From the NCBI GenBank assembly GCA_017540565.1, contig JAFYAU010000034.1:40335-104334 (forward strand): a stretch of DNA of 64,000 bases, in the 5' to 3' direction. This DNA comes from Oscillospiraceae bacterium. GTDB lineage: Bacteria > Bacillota > Clostridia > Oscillospirales > Oscillospiraceae. Positions 1-56,280 of this stretch are shown here, piece by piece; position 1 is the first letter of the stretch; each line of letters starts with the position of its first letter. The position numbers and the translations under genes are program-made. Under the pieces are notes generated by a model. It ran no database searches. It worked only from the letters and a program-made list of their open reading frames with translations, and was not told where the DNA came from.

Positions 1-963
1 GTGGGCCATCCCGTCTCCGGCGACCTGAGCAAATACGAGACCTTCGATCAGTTCATGGCGGACTTCCTTCCCGAATACAGATATTTCGTCGAGACCGCGG
101 CGGAGAAGCTGAACATCGAGAGCGCCGTGTTCAAGGATCTGCTCCCCGATCCCTTCCGCGCCGCCTTCATGGCCAACGGCATCAAGTCCGGCCTCGACTG
201 CTACGCGCAGGAATACCCCTTCGAAAGCAATCAGCTGCTCAATCCCGTGGGCATGGTGAACCTCGCCCAGTGCCTGTATGCCATCAAGAAACTCTGCTTC
301 GAGGAAAAGGTCTGCACGCTGCCCGAGATGAAGAAGGCCATGGACGCCAACTGGGTCGGCTATGAGGATCTGCACAAGCGCTGCCTCGACCTGCCCCATT
401 ACGGCAACGGCAACGACGAAGCAGACGACATGGTCCGCCAGTGCTACCGCTGGTGGGTGGATATCGCCAACCAGACGCCCTCTTCTCTGGGCGGGCATTT
501 CCGCTGCTCGGCCATTTCCGTCACCAGCCATCAGCCCGGCGGCGCCCTGTGCGGCGCCATGCCGGACGGCCGCTACAAGGGCGACATCCTGGCCGATGCC
601 TGCGCGTCCCCGATGGCCGGCTGCGACCACGAGGGTCCTCTCGCGGTGTTCACCTCCGCCATGAAGATCCCCCAGGATGAGTTCCAGGCCATGCTGCTGA
701 ACATGAAGTTCTCCCCCAGCGCACTGTCCACCGACCGCGACAAGATGAAACTGGCCAGCGTCATCAAGGCGTATTTCGCCAATGGCGGCAAGCACGTGCA
801 GTTCATCGTGGAGGATCAGGAGACTCTGAAGGATGCCAAGGCTCATCCGGAGAAGCACAATGACCTGATGGTGCGCGTGGCCGGATACAGCACGTACTTC
901 GTGCAGCTGACGCCCGGTCTTCAGGACGAGGTCATCGCCCGCACGGAGAATACCCAGATCTGA
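1..963 (+). CDS. glycyl radical enzyme (PFL2/dehydratase-like clade), C-terminal 320 aa; 5' end lies outside the window
   Basis: The ORF is open from base 1. It carries the glycyl-radical fingerprint RVAGYSTYF (Gly codon 883-885) and a SHQPGG..MPDGR..GDILAD block. It is clearly paralogous by eye to the complete GRE at 32567-34966. Confidence 0.9.
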   Translation: MGHPVSGDLSKYETFDQFMADFLPEYRYFVETAAEKLNIESAVFKDLLPDPFRAAFMANGIKSGLDCYAQEYPFESNQLLNPVGMVNLAQCLYAIKKLCFEEKVCTLPEMKKAMDANWVGYEDLHKRCLDLPHYGNGNDEADDMVRQCYRWWVDIANQTPSSLGGHFRCSAISVTSHQPGGALCGAMPDGRYKGDILADACASPMAGCDHEGPLAVFTSAMKIPQDEFQAMLLNMKFSPSALSTDRDKMKLASVIKAYFANGGKHVQFIVEDQETLKDAKAHPEKHNDLMVRVAGYSTYFVQLTPGLQDEVIARTENTQI

Positions 964-988: not shown

Positions 989-1927
989 TTGACCGACAGA
1001 TATATGGAGCTTACAGCCCCGGTTTTCAACGTTCAGACATATTCCATCCATGACGGTCCCGGCATCCGCGTGACGGTCTTTGTGAAAGGCTGCCCGCTGC
1101 GCTGCCGCTGGTGCGCAAACCCGGAATCCAATCTCGCAAGGCCGCAGCTGATGACCTACGCCGCCAAATGCACTGCGTGCGGACGCTGCGTCGCCGCATG
1201 TCCGCAGAAGGCCGTTTCCATCGGAACGCTGCACGACAAGCCCTGCGCGATCACCGACCGGGAGCTCTGCGTGGAGTGCGGGGTCTGCGTGGACGTCTGT
1301 CCCTGCGAAGCCCGCGAGATCGTCGGTCGGGAAAAGACCGTGCGCGAGGTCCTGGAGCAGGTCCTCAAAGACAAACTGTTCATCGACGCGTCCGGAGGCG
1401 GAATGACCGTCAGTGGCGGAGAATGCCTTGCGCATCCGGATTTCACCGAGGCTCTGCTTTACGCCGCGAAGGAGCAGGGGCTGCACACGGCCATCGAATC
1501 CTCCTCCTTTGCCTCCGAAGCCGTTTTTGACCAGGTGCTGCGCTACGTCGATCTGGCTCTGCTGGATATCAAGCACATGGACTCCGACATCCACCGCGAG
1601 CTGACCGGCGTGCCCAATGAGCAGATCCTCAGCAACATCCGCCACGCGGTGCACGATCTGAAGAAGAACGTCACCGTCCGGGTGCCCACGATCCCCGGAT
1701 ACAACGATTCCGAGGAGAACATCCGGGCTACGGCCCGGTTCGTGAAAGAGGAACTCGGCCCGGACGTCGGCATCCATCTCCTCCCCTACCACCGGCTCGG
1801 AGAATCGAAAAACGAAAGTCTCGGCAAGGTCATGGATCTTTCCGTTTCCGTTCCCTCCGACGAGCACATGCAGGACCTGAAGCGGATCGTGGAATCCTAC
1901 GGTCTCTACTGCCAGATCGGCGGCTGA
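989..1927 (+). CDS. glycyl radical enzyme activating enzyme (radical SAM)
   Basis: CPLRCRWC matches the CxxxCxxC radical-SAM motif near the N-terminus. Two ferredoxin-like clusters follow (CTACGRCVAACP, CVECGVCVDVCP). AAGGAG lies 11 nt upstream of TTG 989. The gene sits directly downstream of a GRE. Confidence 0.9.
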   Translation: MTDRYMELTAPVFNVQTYSIHDGPGIRVTVFVKGCPLRCRWCANPESNLARPQLMTYAAKCTACGRCVAACPQKAVSIGTLHDKPCAITDRELCVECGVCVDVCPCEAREIVGREKTVREVLEQVLKDKLFIDASGGGMTVSGGECLAHPDFTEALLYAAKEQGLHTAIESSSFASEAVFDQVLRYVDLALLDIKHMDSDIHRELTGVPNEQILSNIRHAVHDLKKNVTVRVPTIPGYNDSEENIRATARFVKEELGPDVGIHLLPYHRLGESKNESLGKVMDLSVSVPSDEHMQDLKRIVESYGLYCQIGG

Positions 1928-27025: not shown

Positions 27026-27036
27026 CCAATGACACA

Positions 27037-27078
27037 GAAAGGACGCCGTTCCGGCCGGAACGGCGTCCTCTTTCTTTC
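27037..27078. terminator. bidirectional intrinsic terminator
   Basis: A 13-bp stem AGGACGCCGTTCC/GGAACGGCGTCCT with loop GGCC, flanked by an A-run and a T-rich run. It lies between convergent genes. Confidence 0.8.
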
Positions 27079-27091
27079 TCACGGTCTTCTG

Positions 27092-27937
27092 TCATGCCTC
27101 CAGCGCCCGTCTGACGGCGCGGATATACTCCGGCGTGGTGCCGCAGCACCCTCCGACGATCCTGACGCCCAGTTCCCGGTAGGGCAGCAGCTGTTCCGCG
27201 TATTCCTCCGGACCGACGCTGTATTGTCCCTGTCCGTCCGGCAGGCCGGCGTTGAGCTTTACGATGAGAGGTTTTTTCAGGATCCTTGCCAGGCGCGTGA
27301 CGGCCGGCAGCATCTCCTTCGGCTCCCGGGAGCAGTTCACTCCGGCCGCCGTCAGGGGCAGTCCGTTGGCCAGTTCTCCGAATTCCTCGATGGAATATCC
27401 GGTATAGGTCAGTCCCGTTTCCGAGAACGTCATCGTGGCCAGCACATCCAGTTCCGTATTCTCCGCTGCAGCAATGACCGCCGCCTTCAGTTCGTCGGGT
27501 GCGCTCATCGTCTCCGCGCAGATCAGGTCCGCGCCGGCTTTCGCCCCGCTGACGGCCAGCCGGGCGAACCGCCCGTAGGCGATCTCATAGGTGAGCGCGC
27601 CGTAGGGCTCCATGAACTCGCCGGTAGGTCCCACATCCAGCGCGGCCAGGGCCTTTCCCCCGGCGGCTCTTTTCGCGATGGCCACGGCATCCGCGACCGC
27701 CGCGTCCAGTTCCCCGTCCGTCATATCCTTCAGGCGGCTGCTGAGGGAGAACGTATTTGTATACAGAACGTCGCTGCCGGCTTCCGCATAGGCGCGTTGG
27801 ATGCTCTCCACCGCCTCCGGATGTGCCTGATTCATCTCGTCCGTACGCATGCCGGGCGTCATGCCTCTTTTCATCAGAAGGCTGCCCATGCCCCCGTCGC
27901 AGTATATGATCTTTCTTTCTTTGGGCCACGCTTTCAT
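27092..27937 (-). CDS. homocysteine S-methyltransferase domain protein
   Basis: Blocks DGGMGS, YTNTF and the C-terminal zinc motif GGCCGTTPE. ATG 27937 has a GGAGGG RBS, and an extended -10 TGgTAAAAT lies just upstream. Confidence 0.85.
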   Translation of the reverse strand: MKAWPKERKIIYCDGGMGSLLMKRGMTPGMRTDEMNQAHPEAVESIQRAYAEAGSDVLYTNTFSLSSRLKDMTDGELDAAVADAVAIAKRAAGGKALAALDVGPTGEFMEPYGALTYEIAYGRFARLAVSGAKAGADLICAETMSAPDELKAAVIAAAENTELDVLATMTFSETGLTYTGYSIEEFGELANGLPLTAAGVNCSREPKEMLPAVTRLARILKKPLIVKLNAGLPDGQGQYSVGPEEYAEQLLPYRELGVRIVGGCCGTTPEYIRAVRRALEA

Positions 27938-28106
27938 CCGGTCGCCCTCCCCCCGTTTTCCACATTTTACCATATCCTGTACGTCGCTGTACACGCATTT
28001 TTCACGTTCTGCCTTCCGCAAAAACCTGTTTTCTTTCTCCCGTATTTATGCTATAATGACGATACCGCAGAGGTCCTGCAATCCAAATCCTACGGGAGGT
28101 ATCGCT

Positions 28107-28730
28107 ATGGGCAATCTTATCATTACCATCAGCCGTGAGTTCGGCAGCGGAGGCCGGAAGATCGGCGAACTGCTGGCGACCCAGCTCTGCATCCCCTTTT
28201 ATGATAAAGAGATCATCCAGATGACGGCGGAAAAGAGCGGCCTGTCCGCTGAATTCGTCGCCGAGCAGGAGGAACACAGCCGCAGGAGTTTTCTCTTCTC
28301 CATCGCGTCCGGCCCCTATTCCTCCGTGAGCATGCCCTTCCCCTATGACACCAACGTGACAGACCAGGCCTACTTCTCTCAGACGGATATCATCCGCGAA
28401 CTGGCGGCTGCCGGCAGCTGCGTCATTGTCGGACGATGCGCCGACTATATCCTCAGAGAAGAGGAGAAGCTTCTCAGGGTCTTCGTGACGGCCGATCCGG
28501 AGAAGCGCCGCCAGAGGATCGTGAACGAGTACGGCATCGACGAGAAATCCTCTGCCGAGAAGATCAAGAAGGCGGACAAGGCTAGGGCCAGTTACGTACG
28601 CCGCTATACCGGCGAGGAGTGGGGCGACGTGAACAATTACGATCTCGTGATCAACTCCGATTTCACCGGCATCACCGGCGCCGTCGAAGTGATCAAGGCC
28701 GCTCTCCGCGCCAGAGAGTACATCCGATGA
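28107..28730 (+). CDS. cytidylate kinase-like family protein
   Basis: ITISREFGSGGRKIGELLA matches the Cytidylate_kin2-type N-terminus. GGGAGG RBS. An extended -10 TGcTATAAT lies at 28049-28057. Confidence 0.85.
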   Translation: MGNLIITISREFGSGGRKIGELLATQLCIPFYDKEIIQMTAEKSGLSAEFVAEQEEHSRRSFLFSIASGPYSSVSMPFPYDTNVTDQAYFSQTDIIRELAAAGSCVIVGRCADYILREEEKLLRVFVTADPEKRRQRIVNEYGIDEKSSAEKIKKADKARASYVRRYTGEEWGDVNNYDLVINSDFTGITGAVEVIKAALRAREYIR

Positions 28731-28835: not shown

Positions 28836-28864
28836 TTGCAAAACGGGCATCCGGGTGATAGAAT
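28836..28864 (+). promoter_or_regulatory. candidate promoter of the aldehyde dehydrogenase-ptb-buk genes
   Basis: TTGCAA (28836-28841), 17 nt spacer, TAGAAT (28859-28864), with a TGn extension at 28856-28858. Confidence 0.5.
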
Positions 28865-28929
28865 ATTTTGACAGGGTGACTATTGCCTTTGATTAACTTC
28901 AAAATTAATTGAGAAAGAGGTTGAAGAAC

Positions 28930-30276
28930 ATGTTTGACAATTACATGGGCATCTTCGAGAAGATCGAGGATGCATGCGTTGCGTCTGCCGCAGCGCAGAA
29001 GGAGCTGATGGCCAAGTGCTCCACGAAGGACCGTCAGAAGATGATCGAGAACATCAAGAAGCGGGCTCTCGAGCGTCTGGAAGAGATCTGCATGATGAAG
29101 TACACCGAGACCGGGTACGGCCGTTATGAAGACAAGGTCCTGAAGAACGGCGGTTCCTTCTCCGATACGCCTGATACCCGGGACGTTCCCGTTCAGGTCT
29201 ATTCCGGTTCCAAGGGTCTGACCATCGACTACTTTGCTCCGTTCGGTGTCGTCGGCGCCATCACGCCTGTGACGAACCCCGCTTCCACCATCATTGCCAA
29301 CACCATCTGCAACCTTGCCGTCGGCAACTCCTTGGTGTTCAATCCCCATCCCGCCGGCGTGAAGAGCGCCAGCTGGACCATCGACCTGGTCAACCGCGCC
29401 ATCGTGGAAGCCGGCGGCCCTGAGAACATGTGCACCGCCGCTGCCAAACCCACCATGGAGACTCTGGATTACATTCTGAAGCATCCGGACATTCACCTGA
29501 TCCTCGGTACCGGCGGTCCCGCCATGGTCCGCACGCTGTTCATGTCCGGCAAGAAGTGCATCTGCGCCGGTCCGGGCAACCCGCCGAGCATCATCGACTC
29601 CACTGCGGACATCAAGAGAGCCGCTTATGAAGTCACCCAGTCCTCCACCTTCGACAACAACATCCTGTGCGTTGCCGAGAAGGAGATCTTCGTCGTGGCT
29701 GACGTGTACGACGAGTTCATCAAGGAGTTCGAGGCGGTCGGCAACGTTCATCTGACCGCTGAGCAGGCCGACGTTCTGCGTGACATGTGCCTGATCAAGA
29801 ACCCCGAAGGCTCTCCCGAGCCCTACTCCGCCAACAAGAAGTACGTCGGCAAAAACGCCAACGTCATCCTGGAGGCCGCCGGCATCCACGTCGAGGGCGA
29901 TCCTCGTCTGGCCTTCTTTGAGGCGGACAACATGGATCCGTTCGTACAGACCGAGCAGATGATGCCCATCATGCCCGTTGTCAAGTGCGACACCTTCGAG
30001 CAGGCCATGGAGCGCGCTCACTACGCCGAGCACGGCAACCGTCACTCCGCCTCCATCTGGACGAAGGATCTGTATCACACCACCGCGTTCGGCAAGATCA
30101 TCGAGACCACCGTGTTCGTCATGAACGGCCGTACGTTCGCCGCGTTCGGACTCGGCGGCGAGGGTTCCAACACCCCGACCATCGCCACTCCCACCGGAGA
30201 AGGCCCGACCGGTCCTCAGTCCTTTGCCCGCCGCAGAAGATTCGCCATGGCCGACGGCCAGGGCTTCGTGATCTGA
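28930..30276 (+). CDS. CoA-acylating aldehyde dehydrogenase (EutE/PduP-like)
   Basis: Blocks PFGVVGAITPVTNP, AGPGNPP, and catalytic-Cys block FDNNILCVAEKE. AAGAGG RBS 9-10 nt before ATG 28930. Confidence 0.85.
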   Translation: MFDNYMGIFEKIEDACVASAAAQKELMAKCSTKDRQKMIENIKKRALERLEEICMMKYTETGYGRYEDKVLKNGGSFSDTPDTRDVPVQVYSGSKGLTIDYFAPFGVVGAITPVTNPASTIIANTICNLAVGNSLVFNPHPAGVKSASWTIDLVNRAIVEAGGPENMCTAAAKPTMETLDYILKHPDIHLILGTGGPAMVRTLFMSGKKCICAGPGNPPSIIDSTADIKRAAYEVTQSSTFDNNILCVAEKEIFVVADVYDEFIKEFEAVGNVHLTAEQADVLRDMCLIKNPEGSPEPYSANKKYVGKNANVILEAAGIHVEGDPRLAFFEADNMDPFVQTEQMMPIMPVVKCDTFEQAMERAHYAEHGNRHSASIWTKDLYHTTAFGKIIETTVFVMNGRTFAAFGLGGEGSNTPTIATPTGEGPTGPQSFARRRRFAMADGQGFVI

Positions 30277-30405
30277 TCGCGGACGCCGCATAAAGCCATA
30301 GTGTAATGAACTCGCCGCCGGATTCCCGCGCAGCCCGGGTACAAGTATCCGGCACCGGATTCGGCGGCTTTTTCCCCCCATAACCTTACAAAGGAGTGAT
30401 TTCCC

Positions 30406-31317
30406 ATGATCAGGAGTTTCAAGGAACTGGCAGACGCCGCGAAGGCCATGGAGAAGAAGACCGTAGTTGCCGTCGTCGAGGCGCAGGACGCCCACACGCT
30501 GGAAGCGGTCGTCACCGCCAAGAAGGACGGCATTATCGAGGGCATGCTCATCGGCAATGAGGAGAAGATCCGCGAGATCCTGGCCCAGGTGGGCGGAGAT
30601 CCGGCCGATTTCACCATCGTGCCTACAGGTTCTCTGGAGGAATCCCTGCAGACGGCCGTCGAGAACATCAACGCCGGCAAAGCCAGCGCCATCATGAAGG
30701 GCAAGCTGGAGACCGGTCAGTTCATGAAGGCCATCGTCAAGAAGGAAAACGGCATGATGGCGGGCGGCCGCATCTCTCTGGTGGGCCTGTACGAGCATCC
30801 GAAATTCTATCACAAACTGCTTGCCGTTACCGACATGGGCATGAATACCTATCCCGATCTGGAGGGCAAGAAGGACCTGATCAACAACGCCGTCCGTCTG
30901 CTGCACGCTCTGGGCAACGATTGCCCCAAGGTGGCCTGCCTGTGCGCCGTGGAAAAAATGAACCCCAAGATGCCCGAAACGGTGGACGCCGACGCGCTGA
31001 AGAAGATGAACATCGCGGGCGAGATCCCCGGCTGCGTCGTGGAAGGCCCCATCTCCTTTGATCTGGCCATCAAGCAGGGTGCCGCCGCCATCAAGGGCTT
31101 CGAGAGCCCCGTGGCCGGAGACGCCGATCTGCTTCTGGTTCCGGACATCACCTGCGGCAACGTTCTGGTCAAGTGCATGACCGACTACGCCGGCGCGACG
31201 ACGGCCGGCACGATCCTCGGCGCCAAGTGCCCCGTGATCGTGACCTCCCGTTCCGCGGAAGCCAGCGATAAGTACTATTCCATCGCTCTTGCCGCCTACT
31301 CGGCAGCCAGCTACTGA
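30406..31317 (+). CDS. ptb: phosphate butyryltransferase
   Basis: PTA_PTB family pattern (AIMKGKLETGQFMKAIV, VPDITCGNVLVK). AAAGGAG RBS. Confidence 0.9.
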   Translation: MIRSFKELADAAKAMEKKTVVAVVEAQDAHTLEAVVTAKKDGIIEGMLIGNEEKIREILAQVGGDPADFTIVPTGSLEESLQTAVENINAGKASAIMKGKLETGQFMKAIVKKENGMMAGGRISLVGLYEHPKFYHKLLAVTDMGMNTYPDLEGKKDLINNAVRLLHALGNDCPKVACLCAVEKMNPKMPETVDADALKKMNIAGEIPGCVVEGPISFDLAIKQGAAAIKGFESPVAGDADLLLVPDITCGNVLVKCMTDYAGATTAGTILGAKCPVIVTSRSAEASDKYYSIALAAYSAASY

Positions 31318-31332
31318 TCGGAGGTAATGCTC

Positions 31333-32436
31333 ATGTCCTATCGTATTCTCGCCGTAAACCCGGGCTCCACTTCCACCAAGATCGCTCTGTTTGACGACGA
31401 TAAGGAGATCTTCAGCAAGGGACTGGTCCACACCAAGGAGGAGCTGAGCCAGTTCAAGGAGATCCAGGATCAGAAAGATTACCGCCGTGCCTGCGTGGAA
31501 GCCGCCATGGCGGAGAACGGCTACGCTCTGGAAGACGTCGACGTGTTCGTAGGGCGCGGCGGCGGCCTGCTGGCCCTGATCGGCGGCACCTATAAGGTCA
31601 CCGATCTGCTGGCCGACCACGCCAGCCGCGGCATGACGGGGCAGCACCCCGCGCAGCTGGCCAGCCAGATCTGCAAGGACTTTGCGGACAAGTACGGCAA
31701 GGTCGCGTTCGTAGTCAATCCCCCCGACGTGGACGAGCTGGAAGAGATCTCCCGCGTGACGGGTCTGAAGGGCATTTACAGAGAGAGCCACATCCACTCC
31801 CTGAACCAGAAGGAGATCGCCCTGCGGTACTGCGCCGGAGCCGGGAAAAAGTATGAGGAATCCAACCTGGTCGTTTGCCATCTGGGCGGAGGCATCTCCG
31901 TGACCGCACATTCCCACGGCCGCATGATCGACTCCAACGACATCATCAAGGGCTCCGGCCCCATGACGCCGACCCGTGCCGGCGACCTTCCCTACGTCAA
32001 GGTCATCGAGCTGGCCTACAGCGGAAAGTATACCCAGAAGGAACTGACGAACCGTCTGAACAAGAACGGCGGCCTGCTGGATCACTTCGGCACGGACGAC
32101 GCCCGGGAGATCGAGAAGAAGATCGCCGACGGCGACAGCTACGCGAAGATCATCTACGACGGCATGCTGTATCAGATCGCCAAATACGCCGGCGCCATGG
32201 CCACGGCCATGAAGGGCAAGGTGGACGCCATCATCCTCACCGGCGGCATGAGTCACAGCAAGTATCTGGTGAACTTCCTGACCGAGTACCTGAGCTGGAT
32301 CGCGGAGATCGTGGTCATGCCCGGCGAATTCGAGATGGAAGCCCTGGCTGCCGGCGCCCTGCGTGTGATGAAGGGCGAGGAGGAAGCAAAGGAATACACC
32401 GGCAGACCCGTATGGTCCGGCTTTGAGGGAGAATGA
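31333..32436 (+). CDS. buk: butyrate kinase
   Basis: ASKHA N-terminus ILAVNPGSTSTKIALF and the HLGGGISV block. GGAGG lies 7 nt before ATG 31333. Confidence 0.9.
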   Translation: MSYRILAVNPGSTSTKIALFDDDKEIFSKGLVHTKEELSQFKEIQDQKDYRRACVEAAMAENGYALEDVDVFVGRGGGLLALIGGTYKVTDLLADHASRGMTGQHPAQLASQICKDFADKYGKVAFVVNPPDVDELEEISRVTGLKGIYRESHIHSLNQKEIALRYCAGAGKKYEESNLVVCHLGGGISVTAHSHGRMIDSNDIIKGSGPMTPTRAGDLPYVKVIELAYSGKYTQKELTNRLNKNGGLLDHFGTDDAREIEKKIADGDSYAKIIYDGMLYQIAKYAGAMATAMKGKVDAIILTGGMSHSKYLVNFLTEYLSWIAEIVVMPGEFEMEALAAGALRVMKGEEEAKEYTGRPVWSGFEGE

Positions 32437-32476: not shown

Positions 32477-32513
32477 GAACACGGTACGGTCCATTCACGG
32501 CCGTACCGTGTTC
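32477..32513 (+). other. perfect 13-bp hairpin between buk and the GRE gene, with no U-tract
   Basis: GAACACGGTACGG (32477-32489) pairs with CCGTACCGTGTTC (32501-32513) around an 11-nt loop. It is followed by CCGTTCC rather than Ts. Confidence 0.6.
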
Positions 32514-32566: not shown

Positions 32567-34966
32567 ATGACGGACCGTGTGAAAAGGATGCTCGAGAGCC
32601 TGAAGGTGAACCGGTATCCGTTGTGCATCGAATATTTCAAGCTGGCCAACGAGTCGCTGGATCAGACAGCCGGGGAACCCATGCTGCTTCGGCGCGCCAG
32701 GCTCCACGCTCATGTGCTGGACAACATTCCCATCTTCATTGAGCCGGAGGATCTGCTGTGCGGCTCTGGCGCCAGCAAGCCGTTCGGACTGGAAATGCAG
32801 TATGAATACGGCGTATGGACAAGGGATGAGGTGGAGTCTCTCAAAAGCGAGATCTACACCATCGCGCCGGAGGATGAGGAGGAGCTGTACCGCCTGAACC
32901 GCCGCTTTGCCGCCAATGCTCTCAACAGCAATCTGGTGGACGCCCTCAGCCGTTCCCTCGGCATGGACGACCGCCTGTGGCCGTTCATGAAGTCCGGCGT
33001 CATCCTCCCCCCCTGGAAGGATCGAAAGGGCGGCTCCGGCGGTGGTTTTGCCATGTCCGGATACGGTCTCGGCCCCGGGTTCTTCCTCGTATGCGTAGAC
33101 TATGAGAAGATCCTTCGGGACGGCGCCCAGTCCATCGTCGACGAGGCGCGGCAATGCCTGAAGGACCTGCGCTACACCTCCGGCGACGCCATTGAAAAGA
33201 AAAACTACTGGGAAGCCGTCGTCATCGTCTATGAAGCGTGGATCCGCTTTGCCGGCCGATACGCCGACCTCTGCGCCAAGCTGGCCGACGCGGAGACGAA
33301 TGCTGCGCGCGCGTCTGAGCTGCGCGAGATGAGCCGGATCTGCCGTCGTGTGCCCCAAGGCCCGGCGGAAAGCTTCCGGGAGGCGCTGCAAAGCTTCTGG
33401 TTCACCTTCCTGATGGCGCTCCCTTCCCCGACCACGTCCGCCGGCCGTTTTGACCAGTACATGTACCCGTATTACCGGAGGGATCGGGACGCCGGTCTCA
33501 TCACCGACGGCGAGGTGCTGGAGCTGCTGGAGATCATGCGTTGCAAGGTGATGAAGATCAACCGCGTTTCCGGAAAGGCGAACCGCGCCAAGAACGCCGG
33601 CATGGCCAAGTGGTACAACTGGACCATCGGCGGCGTCGACGCCGATGGGAACGACGCCACCAATGAGCTGACGTATCTGCTGCTGGAGAGCGCTCAGCAG
33701 ACGCATCTTCCCCATTTCACGCTGACGCTGCGGGTCCATCCCGGCACCCCGGACGCGCTGATGAAAAAGGCGCTGGAGGTCGTCCGCACCGGGATCGGAA
33801 TGCCGGCCTTCGTAGGCGACGGCAGCTACGTCCGCTTCTTCACGGGCAGCGGCATGACGCTGGAAGACGCCCGCGACTACTGCATGACGGGCTGCGTGGA
33901 CGGCAACGTGCCCGCCCGGTCGCGGACGCAGGTCGTCACCTTCTTCATCATCCCCCAGGCCTTTGATATCTTCATGCACAACGGCTTCTGCCGCTTTACG
34001 AAGGAGCGGGTGGGCATCCCCACCGGAGACGTGACGAAGATGGAGACCTTTGAGGAATTCTACGCTGCCTTCTGCCGGCAGTTCCGCCATCTCATGGGCA
34101 TGGCGGCGGAACGCAACAACGTGGAACTGATCGCCCAGCGGGAGCTGTTCCCCGACCCCTTCCGCTCGGCGCTGATGGAAAATGGCGTGAAGGAAGGCAA
34201 GGACATCCTCAACCGCAGATTCGCCATTGAAAACTGCAGCTGCCTCGGCGCCGTAGGCGGCGTGAATACGGGAGATTCTCTGGCGGCCGTAAAGGATCTG
34301 GTCTTCGACCGCAGAAAATACACCATGAAAGAACTGCTGACGGCACTGGACGCCGACTGGGAAGGGTATGAGGAGATGCGGCGCGATTTCATCCGCGCCC
34401 CGAAATACGGCAACGATCTGGAGATGCCGGACCGTTTCGTGGCGGAGATCTACCGTCTGTTCGCGGACGTATGCGCGGAAAACGCGACGGCATACGGAGG
34501 TCACGTGACCCCCAACGCCATCTCCATCTCCGCCCACCAGCCGGGCGGCGCCTGCACTGGTGCGACGCCGGACGGGCGCAGAGGCGGCGACATTCTGGCC
34601 GACGCCTCCCTCTCCCCCGACCACGGGATGGACGTCAGCGGGCCCACCGCCGTGTTCCGAAGTGCGATGAAGGTCGACCAGGATCCGTACCAGGGTACGC
34701 TGATGAACATGAAGCTTTCTCCGGACGTTCTCCGGACCGACGCGGATCTTATGAAGCTCGGCGCAATGATCCGGGCGTATCTGACCCACGGGGGCAAGCA
34801 CGTCCAGTTCAACGTGGTGGACCGGGCCGAGATGGAAGACGCCATGGCGCATCCGGAGGATCATCCGGAGCTCATCGTCCGTGTGGCGGGTTACAGCGCC
34901 TATTTCGTGCGTCTTCCCGCCTCCATCCAGCGGGAGGTCATCGACCGCTCGGAACAGCAGCTGTGA
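32567..34966 (+). CDS. glycyl radical enzyme, PFL2/dehydratase-like clade, substrate unknown (799 aa)
   Basis: Glycyl-radical motif RVAGYSAYF (Gly775, 34889-34891). Cys-loop MTGCVDGN (Cys443 at 33893-33895, Asp445 at 33899-33901). PFL2-type N-terminus. GGGAGGG RBS. Confidence 0.92.
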   Translation: MTDRVKRMLESLKVNRYPLCIEYFKLANESLDQTAGEPMLLRRARLHAHVLDNIPIFIEPEDLLCGSGASKPFGLEMQYEYGVWTRDEVESLKSEIYTIAPEDEEELYRLNRRFAANALNSNLVDALSRSLGMDDRLWPFMKSGVILPPWKDRKGGSGGGFAMSGYGLGPGFFLVCVDYEKILRDGAQSIVDEARQCLKDLRYTSGDAIEKKNYWEAVVIVYEAWIRFAGRYADLCAKLADAETNAARASELREMSRICRRVPQGPAESFREALQSFWFTFLMALPSPTTSAGRFDQYMYPYYRRDRDAGLITDGEVLELLEIMRCKVMKINRVSGKANRAKNAGMAKWYNWTIGGVDADGNDATNELTYLLLESAQQTHLPHFTLTLRVHPGTPDALMKKALEVVRTGIGMPAFVGDGSYVRFFTGSGMTLEDARDYCMTGCVDGNVPARSRTQVVTFFIIPQAFDIFMHNGFCRFTKERVGIPTGDVTKMETFEEFYAAFCRQFRHLMGMAAERNNVELIAQRELFPDPFRSALMENGVKEGKDILNRRFAIENCSCLGAVGGVNTGDSLAAVKDLVFDRRKYTMKELLTALDADWEGYEEMRRDFIRAPKYGNDLEMPDRFVAEIYRLFADVCAENATAYGGHVTPNAISISAHQPGGACTGATPDGRRGGDILADASLSPDHGMDVSGPTAVFRSAMKVDQDPYQGTLMNMKLSPDVLRTDADLMKLGAMIRAYLTHGGKHVQFNVVDRAEMEDAMAHPEDHPELIVRVAGYSAYFVRLPASIQREVIDRSEQQL

Positions 34967-34981
34967 AGGTGAAACGTGAAA

Positions 34982-35019
34982 AAGGGCGTGGACAGGACGC
35001 TGTCTTCGCCCTTTTTCTT
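34982..35019 (+). terminator. intrinsic terminator after the GRE gene
   Basis: Composite stem AAGGGCG..GACAG-GACG-CTGTC..CGCCCTT followed by TTTTCTTC. Confidence 0.8.
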
Positions 35020-35024
35020 CTTGC

Positions 35025-35138: not shown

Positions 35139-37091
35139 ATGAACCGCTTTTTTCCCCATCTGGGCAGCAGTCTGAAGGTCGGCAATGTGCTTCTGAAAAA
35201 CCGCATCGTCAACGCCCCCATGGCGCCCCCGGAAATGGGTCCCATCGGAGACATGACGCCGGAAAACATCGGTTTTTACGGTCTGCGCGCCAGAGGCGGC
35301 GCAGCTGTGATCACTGTGAGTGAGGGCATCGTCCATACGAAAACGGGCCGCAGCCACACCAAGCATCTTTCCCTGGATAATCCCATGATGCTCCCCTCCC
35401 TGGCGGAGACGGCGCGGGAGATCCACTATCATAACGCGCTTGCCAGCATCGAGCTTTCCCATGGGGGAAAATACGCCGGCAACCGCGTACAGGGGCAGGA
35501 TCCGAACGCCGTGACCCGCTACGGCCCCATCGATGAGGTCCTTTCCGACGGGCGGGTGGTGCACGCCATGCCGGAGGAGCTGATCCTGGAGATCGCCGAC
35601 TGTTTCGGCAGTGCCGCCGCCATGTGCAAGAGGGCGGGGTTCGACATGGTGCTGGTCCACGCCGCGCACGGGTGGCTCCTGAGCCAGTTCATGAGCCCTG
35701 GGACCAACAAAAGGACGGATAAGTGGGGCGGAAGCCGCGAAAACCGCATGAGATTCCCCCTCCTGGTGGTGGAAAAGATCCGGGAAGCGGTGGGCCCGGG
35801 CTTTCCCATCGAATTCCGGCTGAGCGGTTCGGAGTATGTGGAGGGCGGTTACGATATCAATGAATGCATAGAGATGTGCCGAATGCTGGACGGCAAGGTC
35901 GACATACTTTACATCTCCGCCGGCGTGCATGAAAACCGCGACAGCTTCGTGATCACCCATCCCTCCATGTTCCTCCCCCACGGCAGCAACGTCCATCTGG
36001 CCGCCGCGGTGAAAAAGCACATGAAGCACACGCCCGTAGGCTGTGTGGGCGGCATCAATGACCCCGCGCAGGCGGAGGAGATCCTGGCGTCCGGTCAGGC
36101 GGATCTGATCTGCATGGCCAGGCAGCTGCTGGTGGATCCGGATTTTCCGAAAAAAGCCCTGTCCGGCCGGGCGGAGGATATCACGAAATGCTGCCGCTGC
36201 TTTACCTGTTTTGCCTCCACTCTGAACACCCGGGTCACGTCCTGTGCCCTGAACCCCGCCATCGGGCGGGAACTGGACCAGCGGTACGGCCGTCCCGCCA
36301 CCACGCCGAAGCGCCTGGTCATCGTGGGTGGAGGCCCCGGCGGGATGCAGGCGGCCCTGACGGCGCGCGAGCAGGGGCATGAGGTGATCCTTCTGGAAAA
36401 GGCCGACCGGCTGGGCGGCCAGCTGAACAGTGAGGAGTTCGTGCCTTTCAAGGCGGACCTGTACGCCTACGCCCGTCAGCAGGCGCGGCGGGTACTGGCG
36501 TCCGGTGCCGACGTCCGGCTGAATACGGAGGCCACGCCGGAGCTGATCGAATCCCTGAAACCGGACGCGCTGCTGCTTGCGGTCGGCGCCCGGCCGACCG
36601 TTCCGCCCATCCCCGGCGTCGATTCCGAAAAAGTAAAGGGACTGGAGGCTCTGCACCGGGCCAATCCGGATCTGGGTCAGAGAGTGGCGATCCTCGGCGG
36701 CGGTCTGGTGGGCAGCGAATCGGCGGTCTGGCTCAGCATGCTGGGCCGTGAGGTGACGGTCGTGGAGATGAAGGGCGATTACGCCTCCGAAGCCAACGAG
36801 ATGCATAAGATCGCTTTGGAACATGAGTTTGCCCGTTACGGCATCCGTATCTGTGTGAACACGGCGGCTCTGGCCGTCACGGAAGAGGGGCTTGTCTGCC
36901 GCGGGCCGGAGGGAGAGTTCACCGTCCCGTGTGACAGCGTGCTGCTGGCCGCCGGCATGCGCGCCGACTGGGACACGGTGGAACGCTTGCGGTACGCCGC
37001 TCCGTGGTACTGGGCCGTGGGAGACTGCGTCCGGGCCGGTCAGGTGGTCAACGCCACCGAACAGGGACACAACGCGGTATTGGATCTGTAA
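35139..37091 (+). CDS. NADH:flavin oxidoreductase of the 2-enoate reductase / 2,4-dienoyl-CoA reductase family (OYE barrel, 4Fe-4S, FAD/NAD(P) domain)
   Basis: HAAHGWLLSQFMSP..RTDKWGG OYE block, Cys cluster CCRCFTCF..C, and Rossmann motif VIVGGGPGGMQAA. Confidence 0.9.
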   Translation: MNRFFPHLGSSLKVGNVLLKNRIVNAPMAPPEMGPIGDMTPENIGFYGLRARGGAAVITVSEGIVHTKTGRSHTKHLSLDNPMMLPSLAETAREIHYHNALASIELSHGGKYAGNRVQGQDPNAVTRYGPIDEVLSDGRVVHAMPEELILEIADCFGSAAAMCKRAGFDMVLVHAAHGWLLSQFMSPGTNKRTDKWGGSRENRMRFPLLVVEKIREAVGPGFPIEFRLSGSEYVEGGYDINECIEMCRMLDGKVDILYISAGVHENRDSFVITHPSMFLPHGSNVHLAAAVKKHMKHTPVGCVGGINDPAQAEEILASGQADLICMARQLLVDPDFPKKALSGRAEDITKCCRCFTCFASTLNTRVTSCALNPAIGRELDQRYGRPATTPKRLVIVGGGPGGMQAALTAREQGHEVILLEKADRLGGQLNSEEFVPFKADLYAYARQQARRVLASGADVRLNTEATPELIESLKPDALLLAVGARPTVPPIPGVDSEKVKGLEALHRANPDLGQRVAILGGGLVGSESAVWLSMLGREVTVVEMKGDYASEANEMHKIALEHEFARYGIRICVNTAALAVTEEGLVCRGPEGEFTVPCDSVLLAAGMRADWDTVERLRYAAPWYWAVGDCVRAGQVVNATEQGHNAVLDL

Positions 37092-37112: not shown

Positions 37113-39080
37113 ATGTATACGTGCAGATATCCCCACCTGTTTGAACCCATCCGTCTGGGGCGCCAGCTGTTCCGGAACAGGCTTTTTGCCTCCCCCACCG
37201 GATTTCAGGATACGAATGAAAGCGGCTGGCTTCCCCCGGAGGCCGCGGCCTACTATGAGCGCAAAGCCATCGGCGGCGCCGCCAGCGTAGCCTCCTGCGA
37301 ATGCATCGTGGATTCGGAATACGGACTGGGAACGCCGCGCCATTTCCGGCTGGATGACCCCATGTCCCATTTCTCTCTTGCCCGGATCGCGCACGCCGTG
37401 TCCCGCCATGGAGCCGTCGCCAGCTGTGAGCTGCAGCACGCCGGCATGTTCGCCAACCGACAGCTGGCCATGTTCGGCGGCGGCAGCAATGGAAACGCCT
37501 ACGGTCCGGTGGAAACGGAACTCAACGGCCGTCTCGTTCTGCCCATGGATGAAGCGCTGATCGAGCGCACCATCGGCAAATACGCGGACGCTGCCGCAGC
37601 GGCAAAGGCGCTCGGCTTCGGCATGGTCACCGTGCACGCCGGCCACGGCTGGATGCTGCATCAGTTCCTCTCCCCTCTGACGAACACCCGCACGGACCGC
37701 TGGGGCGGCGCCTCCATCGAAAACAGAGCCCGCCTGCTGCTGTGCGTGCTGGAGGCCATACGCCGCAGAGTGGGCCCCGGTTTTCCCATTGAGGTCCGCA
37801 TCAGCGGCAGCGAGGCTTACGAGGGCGGCTACGGCATTGAAGAGGGGGTGGCGATCGCCCGTCAGCTGGACGGAAAGTGCGACCTGATCCACGTATCCGC
37901 CGGCAATCATGAGGTGGACGAGGTGTTCACCGTGACCCATCCTTCCATGTTCATGGAGGATGGCTGCAACGTGAAATACGCGGCGGAGATCCGAAAGCAC
38001 GTGCGCACGCCCGTGGCCGCGGTCGGCGCGCTGAGCGATCCGGCCCAGATGGAAGAGATCATCGCCTCGGGTCAGGCGGACGTGGTGGAAATGGCCCGTC
38101 AGCTGCTGGCTGATCCGGACACGCCCAACAAGCTGCGCACCGGCAGGGAAAACGAGGTCCGCCGCTGCATGCGCTGTCTGAGCTGCTTCTCCGCTGAACT
38201 GACGCACGGAGCGCCCTATTGTGCCATCAATCCGGAAACAGGACGCGAGCTGGAGATCAAATACGATTCCACGCCGGTCAGGACCCGGAAGCGCGTTCTG
38301 ATCGCCGGCGGCGGCATCGGCGGGATGCAGGCCGCTCTGACCTGCGCGGAGCGCGGACACGAAGTGATCCTCTGCGAAAGAGCCGGCCGTCTGGGAGGCG
38401 CCCTTCGCTGCGAAGAGAAGGTCCCCTTCAAGAAAAACCTCGATCGGTATCTCAACGCCCAGGAGCAGGCGGTGAAGGCCGCTCCCATCGATCTGCGGCT
38501 GAACACCGCCGTCACTCCGGAACTGGCGCGGGAGCTGGCGCCGGACGTGATCATCGCCGCCACCGGCGCACGCCCCGTAAAGCCTCCTATCCCGGGCGTC
38601 GATGGGGACAACGTCCTCAGCGCGGAATACGCTTACGTCCATCCGGAAGCGGTCGGAGAGCAGGTCGTGATCCTTGGGGCCGGGCTCGTAGGAGTCGAAC
38701 TGGGCATCTTCCTGGCCATGCAGGGGCGAAAGATCACGATCGTGGAGATGGCGCCGGAAATGAACGACGGTGGCAACTTCCTGCACGCCTCCGGCCTGCG
38801 GGTACAGATCCGGAAGTACGGCATCGGCATTCACTGCAATACCCGGGCCGAGCGGATCGCTCAGGACGGCGTCACCTGTTCCGCAGAGGGAAAAAGCGTT
38901 TTCTTCCCGGCGGATACGGTCGTATACGCCGTGGGTCAGCGCTCCATCGATGAGGATGCCCTGGCATTGAATCTCTGTGCGCCGGAGTTCTTCATGCTGG
39001 GCGACTGCGTGACCCCGAGGAACATCGTCAGCGCCACCGGCGCCGCTTATACCGTCGCGCGGGACATCGGCACAAGATGA
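37113..39080 (+). CDS. second NADH:flavin oxidoreductase of the same family (tandem paralog)
   Basis: HAGHGWMLHQFLSP..RTDRWGG, CMRCLSCF..C, and LIAGGGIGGMQAA. AAGGAGG RBS. Confidence 0.9.
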   Translation: MYTCRYPHLFEPIRLGRQLFRNRLFASPTGFQDTNESGWLPPEAAAYYERKAIGGAASVASCECIVDSEYGLGTPRHFRLDDPMSHFSLARIAHAVSRHGAVASCELQHAGMFANRQLAMFGGGSNGNAYGPVETELNGRLVLPMDEALIERTIGKYADAAAAAKALGFGMVTVHAGHGWMLHQFLSPLTNTRTDRWGGASIENRARLLLCVLEAIRRRVGPGFPIEVRISGSEAYEGGYGIEEGVAIARQLDGKCDLIHVSAGNHEVDEVFTVTHPSMFMEDGCNVKYAAEIRKHVRTPVAAVGALSDPAQMEEIIASGQADVVEMARQLLADPDTPNKLRTGRENEVRRCMRCLSCFSAELTHGAPYCAINPETGRELEIKYDSTPVRTRKRVLIAGGGIGGMQAALTCAERGHEVILCERAGRLGGALRCEEKVPFKKNLDRYLNAQEQAVKAAPIDLRLNTAVTPELARELAPDVIIAATGARPVKPPIPGVDGDNVLSAEYAYVHPEAVGEQVVILGAGLVGVELGIFLAMQGRKITIVEMAPEMNDGGNFLHASGLRVQIRKYGIGIHCNTRAERIAQDGVTCSAEGKSVFFPADTVVYAVGQRSIDEDALALNLCAPEFFMLGDCVTPRNIVSATGAAYTVARDIGTR

Positions 39081-39130: not shown

Positions 39131-39511
39131 ATGGAAAAGAAAGTACTCAGCACATCCAGCGCCCCGGCTGCCATCGGCCCGTATTCCCAGGCCATTCAGG
39201 CCAACGGCTTCGTCTTCGTCTCCGGGCAGATCCCCATCGACCCGGCCACCGGTGCCTTTGCCGGGGACGACATCGTCAGCCAGACCCATCAGTGCCTGAA
39301 GAACGTCCGGGAGATCCTGCGTCAGGCGGGTGCGGACATGACGAACGTCGTCCGGGCAGACGTCTACCTGAAGCACATTTCGGACTTTGCCGCGATGAAC
39401 GAGGTGTACGCCCAGTATTTTGAGGGCGCCTGTCCCGCACGCGCCGCCGTACAGGTGGCCGCCATCCCCAGAGACGCTCTGGTGGAGATCGAGGTCATCG
39501 CGGCGCTGTAA
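39131..39511 (+). CDS. ridA: RidA/YjgF-family reactive enamine/imine deaminase
   Basis: APAAIGPYSQAI..GFVFVSGQIP..PARAAVQVAALP-type pattern in a 126-aa protein. Confidence 0.9.
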   Translation: MEKKVLSTSSAPAAIGPYSQAIQANGFVFVSGQIPIDPATGAFAGDDIVSQTHQCLKNVREILRQAGADMTNVVRADVYLKHISDFAAMNEVYAQYFEGACPARAAVQVAAIPRDALVEIEVIAAL

Positions 39512-39531
39512 ACCAGCCGGAATACAGATCA

Positions 39532-39566
39532 GCCGCCGCGGATCGTTATCCCGCGGCGGCTTTTTT
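39532..39566 (+). terminator. intrinsic terminator after ridA
   Basis: GCCGCCGCGGAT-CGTT-ATCCCGCGGCGGC (one bulged C) followed by TTTTTT. Confidence 0.85.
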
Positions 39567-40580: not shown

Positions 40581-40985
40581 TCAGTCTTTCTTCTCGATCT
40601 CGATATAACCGTCGTCTGCGTTTACGAAGATTATATCACCGGTCTCGATGTATTGTAAGGGGTCTTCTTCAAAATCCGTCATGGCGGGAACATGCCCCTG
40701 CGTCATGCACCCCACGGTAAGCGGGCTGCTTTTCGTATGCACGAACGCCGCCGGCTTTTTTCCGAACCCGTAGGCCAGAAAGCCGCCGGATCCCCGCGCG
40801 GAGTAGAAGCACAGCACCTTATCCGTATACGGGACTCGGTACAGAGGATGGTTTCGCTCTGTCGTATAGCCATTTTCGGCGGAAACGTTCGTGAATCCCT
40901 GCAGATACTTCGGCGCAACCAGCGCCTCCGCTTTCACCTTTCCGGGATACTCACAGCGGCCGTAGATTCTTTTTATGCTCATCAT
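40581..40985 (-). CDS. aconitase X swivel-domain protein (DUF126), distal copy
   Basis: RIYGRCEYPGKV..EALV...GGFL.YGFGKKPA.FVH...SPLTVGCMTQGHVPAMTDFEEDP. Most residues are identical by eye to the copy at 41079-41486. Confidence 0.85.
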   Translation of the reverse strand: MMSIKRIYGRCEYPGKVKAEALVAPKYLQGFTNVSAENGYTTERNHPLYRVPYTDKVLCFYSARGSGGFLAYGFGKKPAAFVHTKSSPLTVGCMTQGHVPAMTDFEEDPLQYIETGDIIFVNADDGYIEIEKKD

Positions 40986-41078
40986 TATCCCCCATTCTCA
41001 CGTTGCGGGAGCAACACGTCTGCGTCCGCCGGCAGACGATCCGGTGATCGCCTGCCGGCCGTAGGGCCGCAGATAACG

Positions 41079-41486
41079 TCACTTTTCCTTTTTCGTGATC
41101 TCGATGTACCCTTCGTCCGCGTTGATGAACACGGTATCTCCGGTCTCGATGTACTTCATCGGATCCTCTTCGAAATCCGTCATGGCGGGAACGTGGCCCT
41201 GCGTCATGCACCCCACAGTGAGCGGGCTGCTTTTCGTGTGCACGAAGCCCGCGGGCTTCTTGCCGAATCCGTACTGCAGAAAGCCGCCGGACCCGCGGGG
41301 AGAATAGAAGCAGAGGATCTTTCCGGTATAGGGAACTCTGTACAGCGGATGATTCCTCTCCGTGGTGTAGCCCTTGGCAGGGGCAACGTTCGTGAACCCC
41401 TGCAGATATTTCGGCGCTACCAGCGCTTCGCCTTCCACTTTGCCGGGGTACTCGCACCGGCCGTAGATCCTTTTCTTTTCTGCCAT
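41079..41486 (-). CDS. aconitase X swivel-domain protein (DUF126), proximal copy
   Basis: Same family as the distal copy. ATG 41486 has GGAGG 8 nt upstream and lies 5 nt after the DUF521 stop. The GTG 41501 track start was rejected. Confidence 0.85.
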   Translation of the reverse strand: MAEKKRIYGRCEYPGKVEGEALVAPKYLQGFTNVAPAKGYTTERNHPLYRVPYTGKILCFYSPRGSGGFLQYGFGKKPAGFVHTKSSPLTVGCMTQGHVPAMTDFEEDPMKYIETGDTVFINADEGYIEITKKEK

Positions 41487-41491
41487 TGCGC

Positions 41492-42820: not shown

Positions 42821-42917
42821 TGATTATAACCTCCTAATTATTGATCCGCGTCCGTCGGCCCGATGCCCGCGGAAAAGCGGAACGGTCCGTTTTTCCCGCG
42901 GGCGGGCCCTGCAATTG

Positions 42918-44958: not shown

Positions 44959-44970
44959 CTTACTATCCTC

Positions 44971-46464: not shown

Positions 46465-46520
46465 GTTTTTCTTTCACCAACCCATCATTCAGCGTTTTCA
46501 GACATCTATCGCCATACGTT

Positions 46521-46560
46521 TAAAAATGTCAGATAGGCGTCACCGACACCTATCTGACAT
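46521..46560 (-). terminator. intercistronic hairpin plus T-run between the binding-protein and ATPase genes (attenuator or partial terminator)
   Basis: A 12-bp stem ATGTCAGATAGG (46526-46537) / CCTATCTGACAT (46549-46560), followed on the minus strand by TTTTTA. Confidence 0.6.
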
Positions 46561-46638
46561 TTTGGGCTTAATAGATGTTTAGTTGACCGTTCTTATTTCT
46601 GAATTTTGAAAAACACAGATTATGAAGACCGGAAAAGC

Positions 46639-48006: not shown

Positions 48007-48056
48007 TGTTTAATTCCTCCTAATTTTATTATTTACGAATAACCGCTGGATCACGA

Positions 48057-49088: not shown

Positions 49089-49142
49089 GGAATACCTCGC
49101 CTTACGTCATTTACAGATATTGCCGCACCCGGTCGGCAGGAT

Positions 49143-56262: not shown

Positions 56263-56280
56263 TTCAGGAGGTCCTGCCCC

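Follow-up and report, generated by a model that had tools for sequence, protein, structure and literature searches.

A glycyl radical enzyme with a Cys-x-Asp loop from a sheep omasum bacterium very probably represents a distinct clade with a putative carboxylate substrate

A 64,000-nucleotide stretch of contig JAFYAU010000034.1 (hereafter the window), from the metagenome-assembled genome Oscillospiraceae RGIG6004 of sheep omasum (L008 in our locus numbering), encodes at positions 32567..34966 of the forward strand a glycyl radical enzyme (GRE) with Asp at the position of the Glu in the Cys loop of eliminases. Based on translation, Pfam, an AlphaFold2 model and fold matching, it is a complete GRE of 799 residues, which we place in the GCVDGN subfamily of a Cys-x-Asp (CXD) clade. 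The open reading frame (ORF) 32567-34966 runs without interruption, and a strong ribosome-binding site, GGGAGG, lies 8 nt 5' of its ATG. Residues 1-659 match the PFL-like domain PF02901 (E 5.5e-148) and, C-terminal to this barrel domain, residues 681-781 match the Gly_radical domain PF01228 (E 2.4e-30); the protein is a member of the PFL-like glycyl radical enzyme superfamily IPR004184. Translation and Pfam bear out an earlier sequence-only reading of the window, which had described a complete GRE with an MTGCVDGN Cys loop and an RVAGYSAYF motif. In this loop Cys443 (the thiyl-radical residue), Val444 and Asp445 (in the place of the C-x-E Glu) are encoded at 33893..33901 (+) by TGCGTGGAC (computed coordinates), and the codon of Gly775, where the glycyl radical is predicted to form within RVAGYSAYF, lies at 34889..34891 (+). 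The protein has the same length as its orthologues and holds every invariant GRE residue, and an identical GRE occurs in other assemblies (cluster P0001, with 29 member sequences on 6 contigs). Judging from the sequence, the product is apparently a complete, working enzyme of this oxygen-sensitive radical type.

Upstream on the forward strand, Pfam and NCBIfam assign a CoA-acylating aldehyde dehydrogenase of PduP/EutE-like type (28909-30276), the phosphate butyryltransferase Ptb (30406-31317) and the butyrate kinase Buk (31327-32436), with a promoter-like site at 28836-28864 ahead of the dehydrogenase. Downstream are two enoate-reductase-type Fe-S flavoenzymes: ER1 (35139..37091), with OYE FMN and FAD/NAD domains by Pfam, which is BaiCD/FadH/BilR-like and falls below all NCBIfam equivalog cut-offs, and ER2 (37113..39080; Pfam, NCBIfam), which is 45% identical to ER1. 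These are followed by a RidA-family enamine/imine deaminase (39131..39511; Pfam, and above the cut-off of NCBIfam TIGR00004), a hairpin at 39531-39561 and, 3' of the RidA region, a convergent LysR gene. RNA folding also places a 15-bp hairpin without a U-tail between the Buk gene and the GRE (32477..32513, +; -31.2 kcal/mol, z -4.3) and an intrinsic-terminator-like hairpin with an A-run and a U-run directly after the GRE stop codon (34978..35024, +; -35.5 kcal/mol, z -5.1). The latter suggests separate transcription of the GRE and the reductase genes and, with hairpins on both sides, the GRE gene looks like its own transcription unit.

We scanned one genome per GTDB species, finding at least 168 relatives, and analysed the best 80 loci (65-100% identity). 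The aldehyde dehydrogenase-Ptb-Buk genes (28909..32436) lie beside the GRE only in L008 and are absent from the 79 other species loci, and a RidA homologue flanks the GRE in three loci only, L008 included. Among the window neighbours only the enoate reductases recur beside orthologues, with the ER1 family adjoining the GRE in 7 of the 80 loci. We therefore rejected the window operon as a guide to function, and regard it as a weak one, since the aldehyde dehydrogenase, Ptb, Buk, RidA and LysR genes are not conserved and hairpins bracket the GRE gene.

The GRE here is atypical in that no activase, PucR regulator or CitMHS gene adjoins it. The only radical SAM GRE activase in the window (CxxxCxxC motif search, Pfam) is encoded at 989..1927 (+) and shares up to 66% identity with activases adjoining GCVDGN orthologues; by this similarity it is likely the activator of GRE 32567-34966. 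It follows the C-terminal 320 residues of a second CXD GRE, GRE_C (1..963, +; Pfam), which is cut by the window edge. The full gene, recovered in L095/L096, encodes 805 residues with a GCIDGN loop and is 45% identical to GRE 32567-34966. Upstream of the window, identical contigs carry CitMHS (on the reverse strand), LysR, GRE_A, GRE_B and GRE_C, then the activase; GRE_A (809 residues) and GRE_B (807 residues) have GCVEP loops. A compatible activase and a CitMHS carrier are thereby present 31-40 kb upstream of the GRE in the same genome region. Four GREs occur within ~45 kb, and three of them (GRE_A, GRE_B and GRE_C) share one row with a single activase, after LysR and the divergent CitMHS. GRE_A and GRE_B form a tandem C-x-E pair (L095:2614-7498), are 69% identical to each other, and in both the Cys loop has an unusual Cys-rich extension and reads GCVEP[SA]GCGDEWPACGG.

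Sequence and structure comparisons agree on the identity of the key residues. Using phmmer, Cys443 aligns with the catalytic Cys of solved GREs, including those of propanediol dehydratase (PD), CutC and glycerol dehydratase (GD; Cys433), and Asp445 aligns with the Glu of GCVE in GD (1R8W), PD (5I2A, 9RCO) and CutC, both as the sequence-only reading had proposed; the Gly775 and Cys443 columns are invariant in the GRE alignment. The AlphaFold2 model, built from a 41-sequence alignment, has a mean predicted local distance difference test score of 91.9 and a predicted template modelling (TM) score of 0.92, and is predicted to adopt the ten-stranded barrel fold of solved GREs. In Foldseek, it matches about 50 solved GRE chains at TM 0.86-0.92 and at most 33% identity; since all solved GREs fall within this range, the fold search is unable to separate GRE classes.

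The Cys+2 position differs among characterised GREs. According to a June 2026 review, all eliminases and isomerases keep C-x-E, adjacent Cys-Cys is limited to PFL and TdcE, and among the decarboxylases PAD has Gln484 and the catalytic Cys of AAD is residue 447 (PMC13450708). In the 7E7L alignment a Leu stands two residues after that AAD Cys. The generalisation that characterised eliminases and decarboxylases alike carry this Glu thus stands for the eliminases but is not universal in the decarboxylases. The GRE has a single Cys in its loop, as noted before, and so lacks the Cys-Cys of PFL and TdcE; it has Asp445 in place of the C-x-E Glu.

No characterised family claims the protein. It reaches none of the NCBIfam equivalog cut-offs, with bit scores of 492 against a cut-off of 1000 for HpsG, 429 against 1050 for CutC, 413 against 1100 for HypD, 412 against 1100 for IAD and 336 against 1150 for HPAD; the subfamily model TIGR01774 gives 508 against 678 and TIGR01255 (PFL) 99 against 994. 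No solved structure in the PDB is more than 33% identical to it. The June 2026 review makes no mention of a C-x-D class (PMC13450708), the sequence similarity network paper PMC6453916 and a methacrylate review yielded nothing relevant, and an assigned function for the CXD subfamily was not found in NCBIfam, the PDB or the GRE literature, including that of 2022-2026 and that touching on itaconate, trans-aconitate, dicarboxylate decarboxylation or Glu-to-Asp mutants. An already assigned function for the GCVD subfamily would have refuted the sequence-only reading; none was found.

Asp445 is fixed over a wide range of organisms. Of the 120 protein clusters nearest to the GRE (72-100% identity), 119 have GCVD and one has no loop match; RVAGYSAYF likewise occurs in 119 of 120, with one sequence lacking a match to the Gly motif. 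All full-length orthologues of the best 80 GTDB species loci read GCVD[GA]N, so that close orthologues do not alternate between Asp and Glu. The host organisms of the relatives include Oscillospiraceae, Lachnospiraceae, Clostridium, Youngiibacter, Fusibacter, Acidaminobacter, Eggerthellaceae, Coriobacteriaceae, Spirochaetia and Selenomonadales, and their habitats are the rumen, the gut of human, mouse and chicken, digesters and sediments. Cultured carriers include Murimonas intestini DSM 26524, Youngiibacter fragilis 232.1, Fusibacter ferrireducens Q10-2 and several Clostridium isolates. CXD GREs often occur as two or three tandem paralogues: copies with GCLDLN or GCLDAN loops are present in 10 of the 80 loci, often with a regulator and a carrier of their own.

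Beyond the orthologues, 50%-identity representatives were searched exhaustively with HMMER and the Cys loops of the best 150 were compared. G-C-[VIL]-D is found in the nearest clusters down to ~35% identity, in at least 17 of them (P0121-P0125, P0127, P0128, P0130-P0132, P0134, P0135, P0137-P0139, P0150 and P0270), and the hallmark of the Cys loop is G-C-[VIL]-D-x-N; beyond ~35% identity the clusters read GCVE or other loops. In a neighbour-joining (NJ) tree the Asp-bearing sequences form one clade (bootstrap 73), with P0129 (C-I-P) as the sole nested exception. Together with four sister clusters, P0126 (C-I-E), P0133 (C-V-Y), P0136 (C-L-G) and P0141 (without the Cys), the CXD clade has a bootstrap of 100, and a further node (bootstrap 97) joins this super-clade to a group containing P0168, which is 65% identical to AAD (7E7L) across a Cys-loop fragment. 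AAD is also the best PDB match of the GRE Cys-loop segment. By these sequence comparisons the nearest outgroup in the sampled tree contains an arylacetate decarboxylase, not classical eliminases. The Asp, fixed in orthologues and mapping to the base of a clade, thus arose once, deep in the tree, and was then retained; it does mark a subfamily, as the sequence-only reading had suggested. We conclude that CXD is very probably a distinct, so far uncharacterised GRE clade. Two of the sister clusters are unusual in both loops: P0141 has G-A-L-S-I-A at the Cys loop and VRLGGGSCYF at the Gly loop, and P0136 combines C-L-G with VRIGGCSAYF. By their motifs, these may be non-canonical or inactive radical enzymes.

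Other positions of the active site are altered as well. In the alignment with GD (1R8W), His164 is replaced by Leu174, His281/Ser282 by Pro288/Thr289 with a 2-residue deletion, Tyr339 by Trp349, Glu435 by Asp445, Asp447 by about Val456, and Tyr640 by Ile652; in GD (1R9D) the polar groups of His164, His281/Ser282, Tyr339, Asp447 and Tyr640 contact the glycerol. Missing from the GRE is the second polar catalytic and binding set of dehydratases (GD His164, His281/Ser282 and Asp447). In GD, His164 protonates the leaving hydroxyl and Glu435 is the base; in eliminases the Cys+2 acid deprotonates the substrate hydroxyl and a second polar residue helps the leaving group (PMC13450708). As aligned, the mapped pocket positions of the GRE other than Asp445 are hydrophobic or aromatic. 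Asp at the Glu site had been called a conservative but geometrically distinct change; it does occupy that site, but it is one of several active-site changes, which together make the GRE more than a conservative tweak of an eliminase.

The clade also shows conserved residues. Nearly every member of CXD keeps Arg340 and His657, and most members keep Trp349, Asn447, Arg453, Arg550 and Glu-Asn 555-556; GD differs at the positions of Arg340, Trp349, Asn447, Arg453, Arg550 and His657. His657 is common to CXD and the AAD-like group, and its position is Asn in GD and in the sampled His174/CXE clusters P0149, P0152 and P0159. Two specific assignments were rejected on active-site grounds. A CutC-like C-N lyase for carnitine or choline-type substrates is at odds with Leu174 at the GD His164 position, which is presumably the equivalent of CutC Asp216, and no betaine-type transporter is linked. 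A polyol or quinate-type dehydratase does not fit the loss of all hydroxyl-binding residues.

Clustering all ORFs of the best 80 loci and annotating the recurrent families gave a core neighbourhood. A GRE activase is present in 52 loci (within 3 kb in 47), a PucR/HTH_30 regulator in 45 and a 433-residue carrier with CitMHS and MatC_N domains in 32. Tripartite carriers also recur, with TctA (accompanied by TctB and TctC) in 7 loci. The basal CXD subfamily P0130 has the order LysR-GRE-CitMHS/MatC-activase, P0132 has CitMHS-GRE-GRE, and P0125 has regulator-GRE-TctB-TctA. Partner genes conserved across the clade are of three kinds: activases, regulators of PucR or LysR type, and carboxylate carriers, either CitMHS/MatC or TctABC.

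A second layer of genes is more variable. It includes a PGA_cap protein with MslH as the nearest epimerase (16 of 80 loci), a URO-D-like protein with no solved homologue (13), a 1087-residue CocE/NonD plus BD-FAE hydrolase (12), a Pct/FadX-like family-I CoA-transferase (11), a PrpD/MmgE protein whose closest matches are IDS epimerase and cis-aconitate decarboxylase (10), and an OYE/FAD enoate reductase (7), which adjoins the GRE wherever present. The family-I CoA-transferase is often accompanied by an acyl-CoA dehydrogenase nearest to the acryloyl-CoA reductase AcrC (440 bits) and also by a ferredoxin-fused EtfA (Fer4-EtfA) nearest to AcrA (442 bits). Two HGD-D proteins and a family-III CoA-transferase resembling dicarboxylate CoA-transferases are present in 5-6 loci each, and a trio of DUF4037, DUF4125 and TPR proteins (c34, c35 and c24) in ~7 loci each (L052, L058, L060, L063, L070, L083 and others), usually beside the Pct-like CoA-transferase. 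Peptide transporters or peptidases also recur near CXD GREs. The neighbour families annotated in the 80 loci include neither microcompartment shell nor alcohol dehydrogenase genes. Most of the loci lack an aldehyde dehydrogenase, such that an aldehyde product is not indicated. Rfam detected no riboswitch around the GRE, either in the window or at 7 orthologous loci.

Two other arrangements were seen. In one Oscillospiraceae lineage (L004:8985-9812 and L005:7413-8240), a 275-residue radical SAM protein with a SPASM domain, and not a canonical PFLE/PFLC-type activase, lies directly 5' of the GCVDGN GRE. At L093:14859-14954, a purine riboswitch lies directly 3' of a basal CXD GRE-CitMHS-activase operon; it heads a cluster of amidohydrolase, xanthine permease and xanthine dehydrogenase genes, and selenium-metabolism genes lie upstream. 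This may be mere adjacency; most CXD loci have regulators of the PucR family, which is of the purine-catabolism type.

Taken together, these results led us to a reading, to which we give a probability of roughly 40%, in which the GRE acts on an imported carboxylic acid, with Asp445 as a proton relay, by decarboxylation or C-C cleavage rather than diol-type elimination. The proposal of a carboxylic acid as substrate, probably di- or tricarboxylic, comes mainly from the carriers found across the clade. Four pieces of evidence favour radical decarboxylation or C-C(OO-) cleavage: (i) the carboxylate carriers, (ii) the hydrophobic pocket with its lone acid, (iii) the place in the tree beside AAD, and (iv) the minimal gene module without aldehyde genes. 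The parts of this reading differ in strength. That the substrate is a carboxylate seems probable, and within that class it is probably small, with two or three carboxyl groups or else with an alkenyl or aryl substituent; a chemistry of the decarboxylation or C-C-lyase type is assigned tentatively. The candidate substrates that we name are guesses consistent with the context.

Following established GRE logic, activase 989-1927 would install the Gly775 radical, which would reversibly form a Cys443 thiyl radical, and this would attack the substrate by H-atom or one-electron abstraction. Asp445, as aligned the only acid left in an otherwise hydrophobic pocket, could then relay a proton, by analogy with Glu505 in HPAD or Glu502 in IAD; in both enzymes, the Cys+2 Glu has been proposed as the proton donor in decarboxylation (PMC13450708). 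The net reaction would be a radical decarboxylation or C-C(OO-) cleavage and not a 1,2-elimination of a diol or amino alcohol, giving a short 2-enoate or a saturated acid. This product might be reduced by the adjacent enoate reductases here and, in other genomes, by way of modules with a Pct-like CoA-transferase and acryloyl-CoA-reductase/Etf-like proteins.

Several observations weigh against decarboxylation of an imported acid. Known GRE decarboxylases take arylacetates only, and an acid at Cys+2 is the hallmark of eliminases and isomerases (PMC13450708). The dehydratases GD and PD are the best overall matches by sequence and fold, even if GREs score nearly alike. The GRE gene lies just downstream of the PduP-like aldehyde dehydrogenase, Ptb and Buk genes, a trio that processes the aldehyde products of eliminases. 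The clade-specific Arg340, Arg453 and Arg550 may line the pocket, but are only candidates from the alignment. The phylogeny is an unrooted NJ tree of representatives of at least ~33% identity only. Accessory genes vary between loci, which may reflect several substrates. Both the carboxylate substrate and its decarboxylation are proposed from sequence and gene context.

The alternative that keeps most of its force is a 1,2-eliminase or isomerase like GD, PD, CutC or IslA. Here the Cys443 thiyl would take H from the carbinol carbon, Asp445 would deprotonate the hydroxyl and the vicinal group would leave, and the resulting aldehyde or oxo-acid would be oxidised by the upstream aldehyde dehydrogenase and converted by Ptb and Buk to an acid and ATP. 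The acidic Cys+2 residue, the top sequence and fold matches, the three upstream genes and the RidA gene downstream all fit this scheme. We nevertheless consider it unlikely, as Leu replaces GD His164 and the His-Ser pair and Asp447 are lost, the three upstream genes accompany the GRE in this genome only, strong hairpins bracket the GRE gene, the annotated neighbour families hold no microcompartment or alcohol dehydrogenase genes, and the sampled tree joins the clade to the AAD lineage rather than to CVEP-loop clusters.

Gene context could also be taken to point to a reaction type new to GREs, a fragmentation or isomerisation of (amino-)dicarboxylic acids. One example would be a fragmentation resembling that of the B12-dependent glutamate mutase, in which a C4 radical of glutamate or 2-hydroxyglutarate yields acrylate and a glycyl or glycolyl radical; another would be a formate-lyase-type cleavage of a saturated polycarboxylate. 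Reduction of an acrylate-type product would fall to the enoate reductases or to the acryloyl-CoA-reductase-like modules. The dicarboxylate-type carriers across the clade, the recurrent AcrC and AcrA homologues and Pct-like CoA-transferase, the IDS-epimerase-like PrpD, the MslH-like PGA_cap protein, the peptide transporters and peptidases, and the PucR/AdeR-type regulators are all in line with such a reaction. It has no precedent among GREs, though, its case comes from gene context only, and the variable accessory genes could belong to other pathways, so that we regard it as improbable.

Two further alternatives have very little left to recommend them. That Asp is neutral, with the substrate and chemistry of a known GRE such as propanediol or glycerol dehydratase, is highly improbable: the chemical likeness of Asp and Glu and the rank of GD and PD as top matches speak for it, but identity to characterised GREs is at most 33%, the NCBIfam equivalog cut-offs are missed widely, other substrate-binding residues are replaced, Asp is strictly conserved over a deep clade, and the genomic context is unlike pdu- and GRM-type loci. 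That the gene is a decaying or inactive paralogue, stranded without activase, regulator and transporter when most loci have an activase, is scarcely credible, given its full-length ORF, invariant GRE residues, strong ribosome-binding site, identical copies in other assemblies, and the compatible activase and CitMHS carrier upstream.

Returning to the preferred carboxylate reading, its broadest form would be that the CXD clade runs a new GRE reaction class, in which aliphatic or alkenyl di-, tricarboxylic or amino-dicarboxylic acids, imported by CitMHS, MatC or Tct carriers, undergo radical decarboxylation or C-C fragmentation. This is speculative, and we hold it to be somewhat unlikely as stated. 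If true, acids such as itaconate, glutaconate, aconitate, tricarballylate or glutamate would be turned into short enoates, and these then reduced, without need of B12 or biotin. The superfamily would gain a new functional class, and orphan steps in the turnover of organic acids in rumen and gut would be filled. GRE discoveries have proved key to anaerobic gut reactions before, including the formation of trimethylamine from choline, of H2S from isethionate, and of p-cresol and skatole, and the use of hydroxyproline. The CXD branch is deep and clearly bounded and occurs in at least 168 GTDB species genomes, and the combination of a C-x-D loop and a hydrophobic pocket fits no characterised GRE class. 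If its substrate is a plant or host organic acid, it would explain an orphan anaerobic conversion, and a CXD enzyme would show how a change from Glu to Asp retunes proton transfer in thiyl-radical catalysis. With cultured carriers and a likely cognate activase known, the hypothesis is directly testable.

The rest of the window holds several other systems. On the reverse strand at 4175-8361, a CobW-like GTPase (4175-4774), a URO-D/MtaA-like protein (4856-5938) and a RACo-type reductive activator (6817-8361) resemble a corrinoid methyltransferase (demethylase) system; protein 4856-5938 is a distant homologue (~28% identity) of the URO-D-like proteins encoded beside CXD GREs in 13 other loci. A separate catabolic cluster occupies 40581-50492, also on the reverse strand, with an Aconitase-X large subunit (41492-42820), swivel-domain small subunits (40581-40985 and 41079-41501), an ABC transporter (42918-48006), a URO-D-like protein (48057-49088) and an FAD oxidoreductase (49143-50492). 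A NiCo riboswitch (56152-56236, +; 69 bits) lies inside the 5' end of a CDF cation-efflux ORF (56092-57195), so that the true CDF start codon must lie 3' of the riboswitch. Finally, a probably spurious 369-residue ORF (27029-28138, +) has no Pfam match; it runs opposite a homocysteine S-methyltransferase gene (27092-28021, -), and its end is overlapped by a gene of the Cytidylate_kin2 family (27849-28730, +).

Compared with known systems, the GRE is closest overall to the dehydratases. GD of C. butyricum (1R8W) and PD (5I2A/5I2G, 9RCO) are the top sequence matches, with 451, 432 and 423 bits, and the top fold matches (TM 0.90-0.92), at an identity of only 31-33%. They share with the GRE the domain order, the Gly loop RVAGYSA, the Cys loop G-C-V-acid and a PFLE/PFLC-type activase. 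Unlike GD and PD, the GRE clade shows no microcompartment context among its annotated neighbour families, and its conserved partner is a carboxylate carrier. The C-x-E eliminases and isomerases (CutC, HypD, IslA/IseG, HpsG/HpfG, HplG and PflD/YbiW) likewise have the same fold (TM 0.87-0.92) and an acid at Cys+2, but they keep Glu, and their substrate-specific residues are absent from the GRE.

Among the decarboxylases, AAD offers the nearer parallel in the tree. AAD of Olsenella scatoligenes (7E7L) resembles the GRE in having His657 and lacking the dehydratase His, and it acts on carboxylic acids, as the CXD clade may do. It differs in its Leu at Cys+2 and in Trp at position 174, is about 30-35% identical, and belongs with sequences that lack Arg340, Arg453 and Arg550 of the CXD clade. 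HPAD and IAD are decarboxylases with an acid at Cys+2, the role proposed here for Asp445, but both use Glu and are distant from the GRE in sequence (HPAD 224 bits), and HPAD needs a small subunit. The GRE belongs to none of the characterised decarboxylase families (HPAD, IAD, PAD and AAD), and its clade neighbours the AAD group in the NJ tree. The X-succinate synthases are more remote. BSS and MASS are lower-ranked fold matches (TM 0.86-0.87), no small accessory subunit genes of the X-succinate synthase type were noticed, and at Cys+15, where these enzymes have a fumarate-binding Arg (Arg508 of BSS), the GRE has Thr458.

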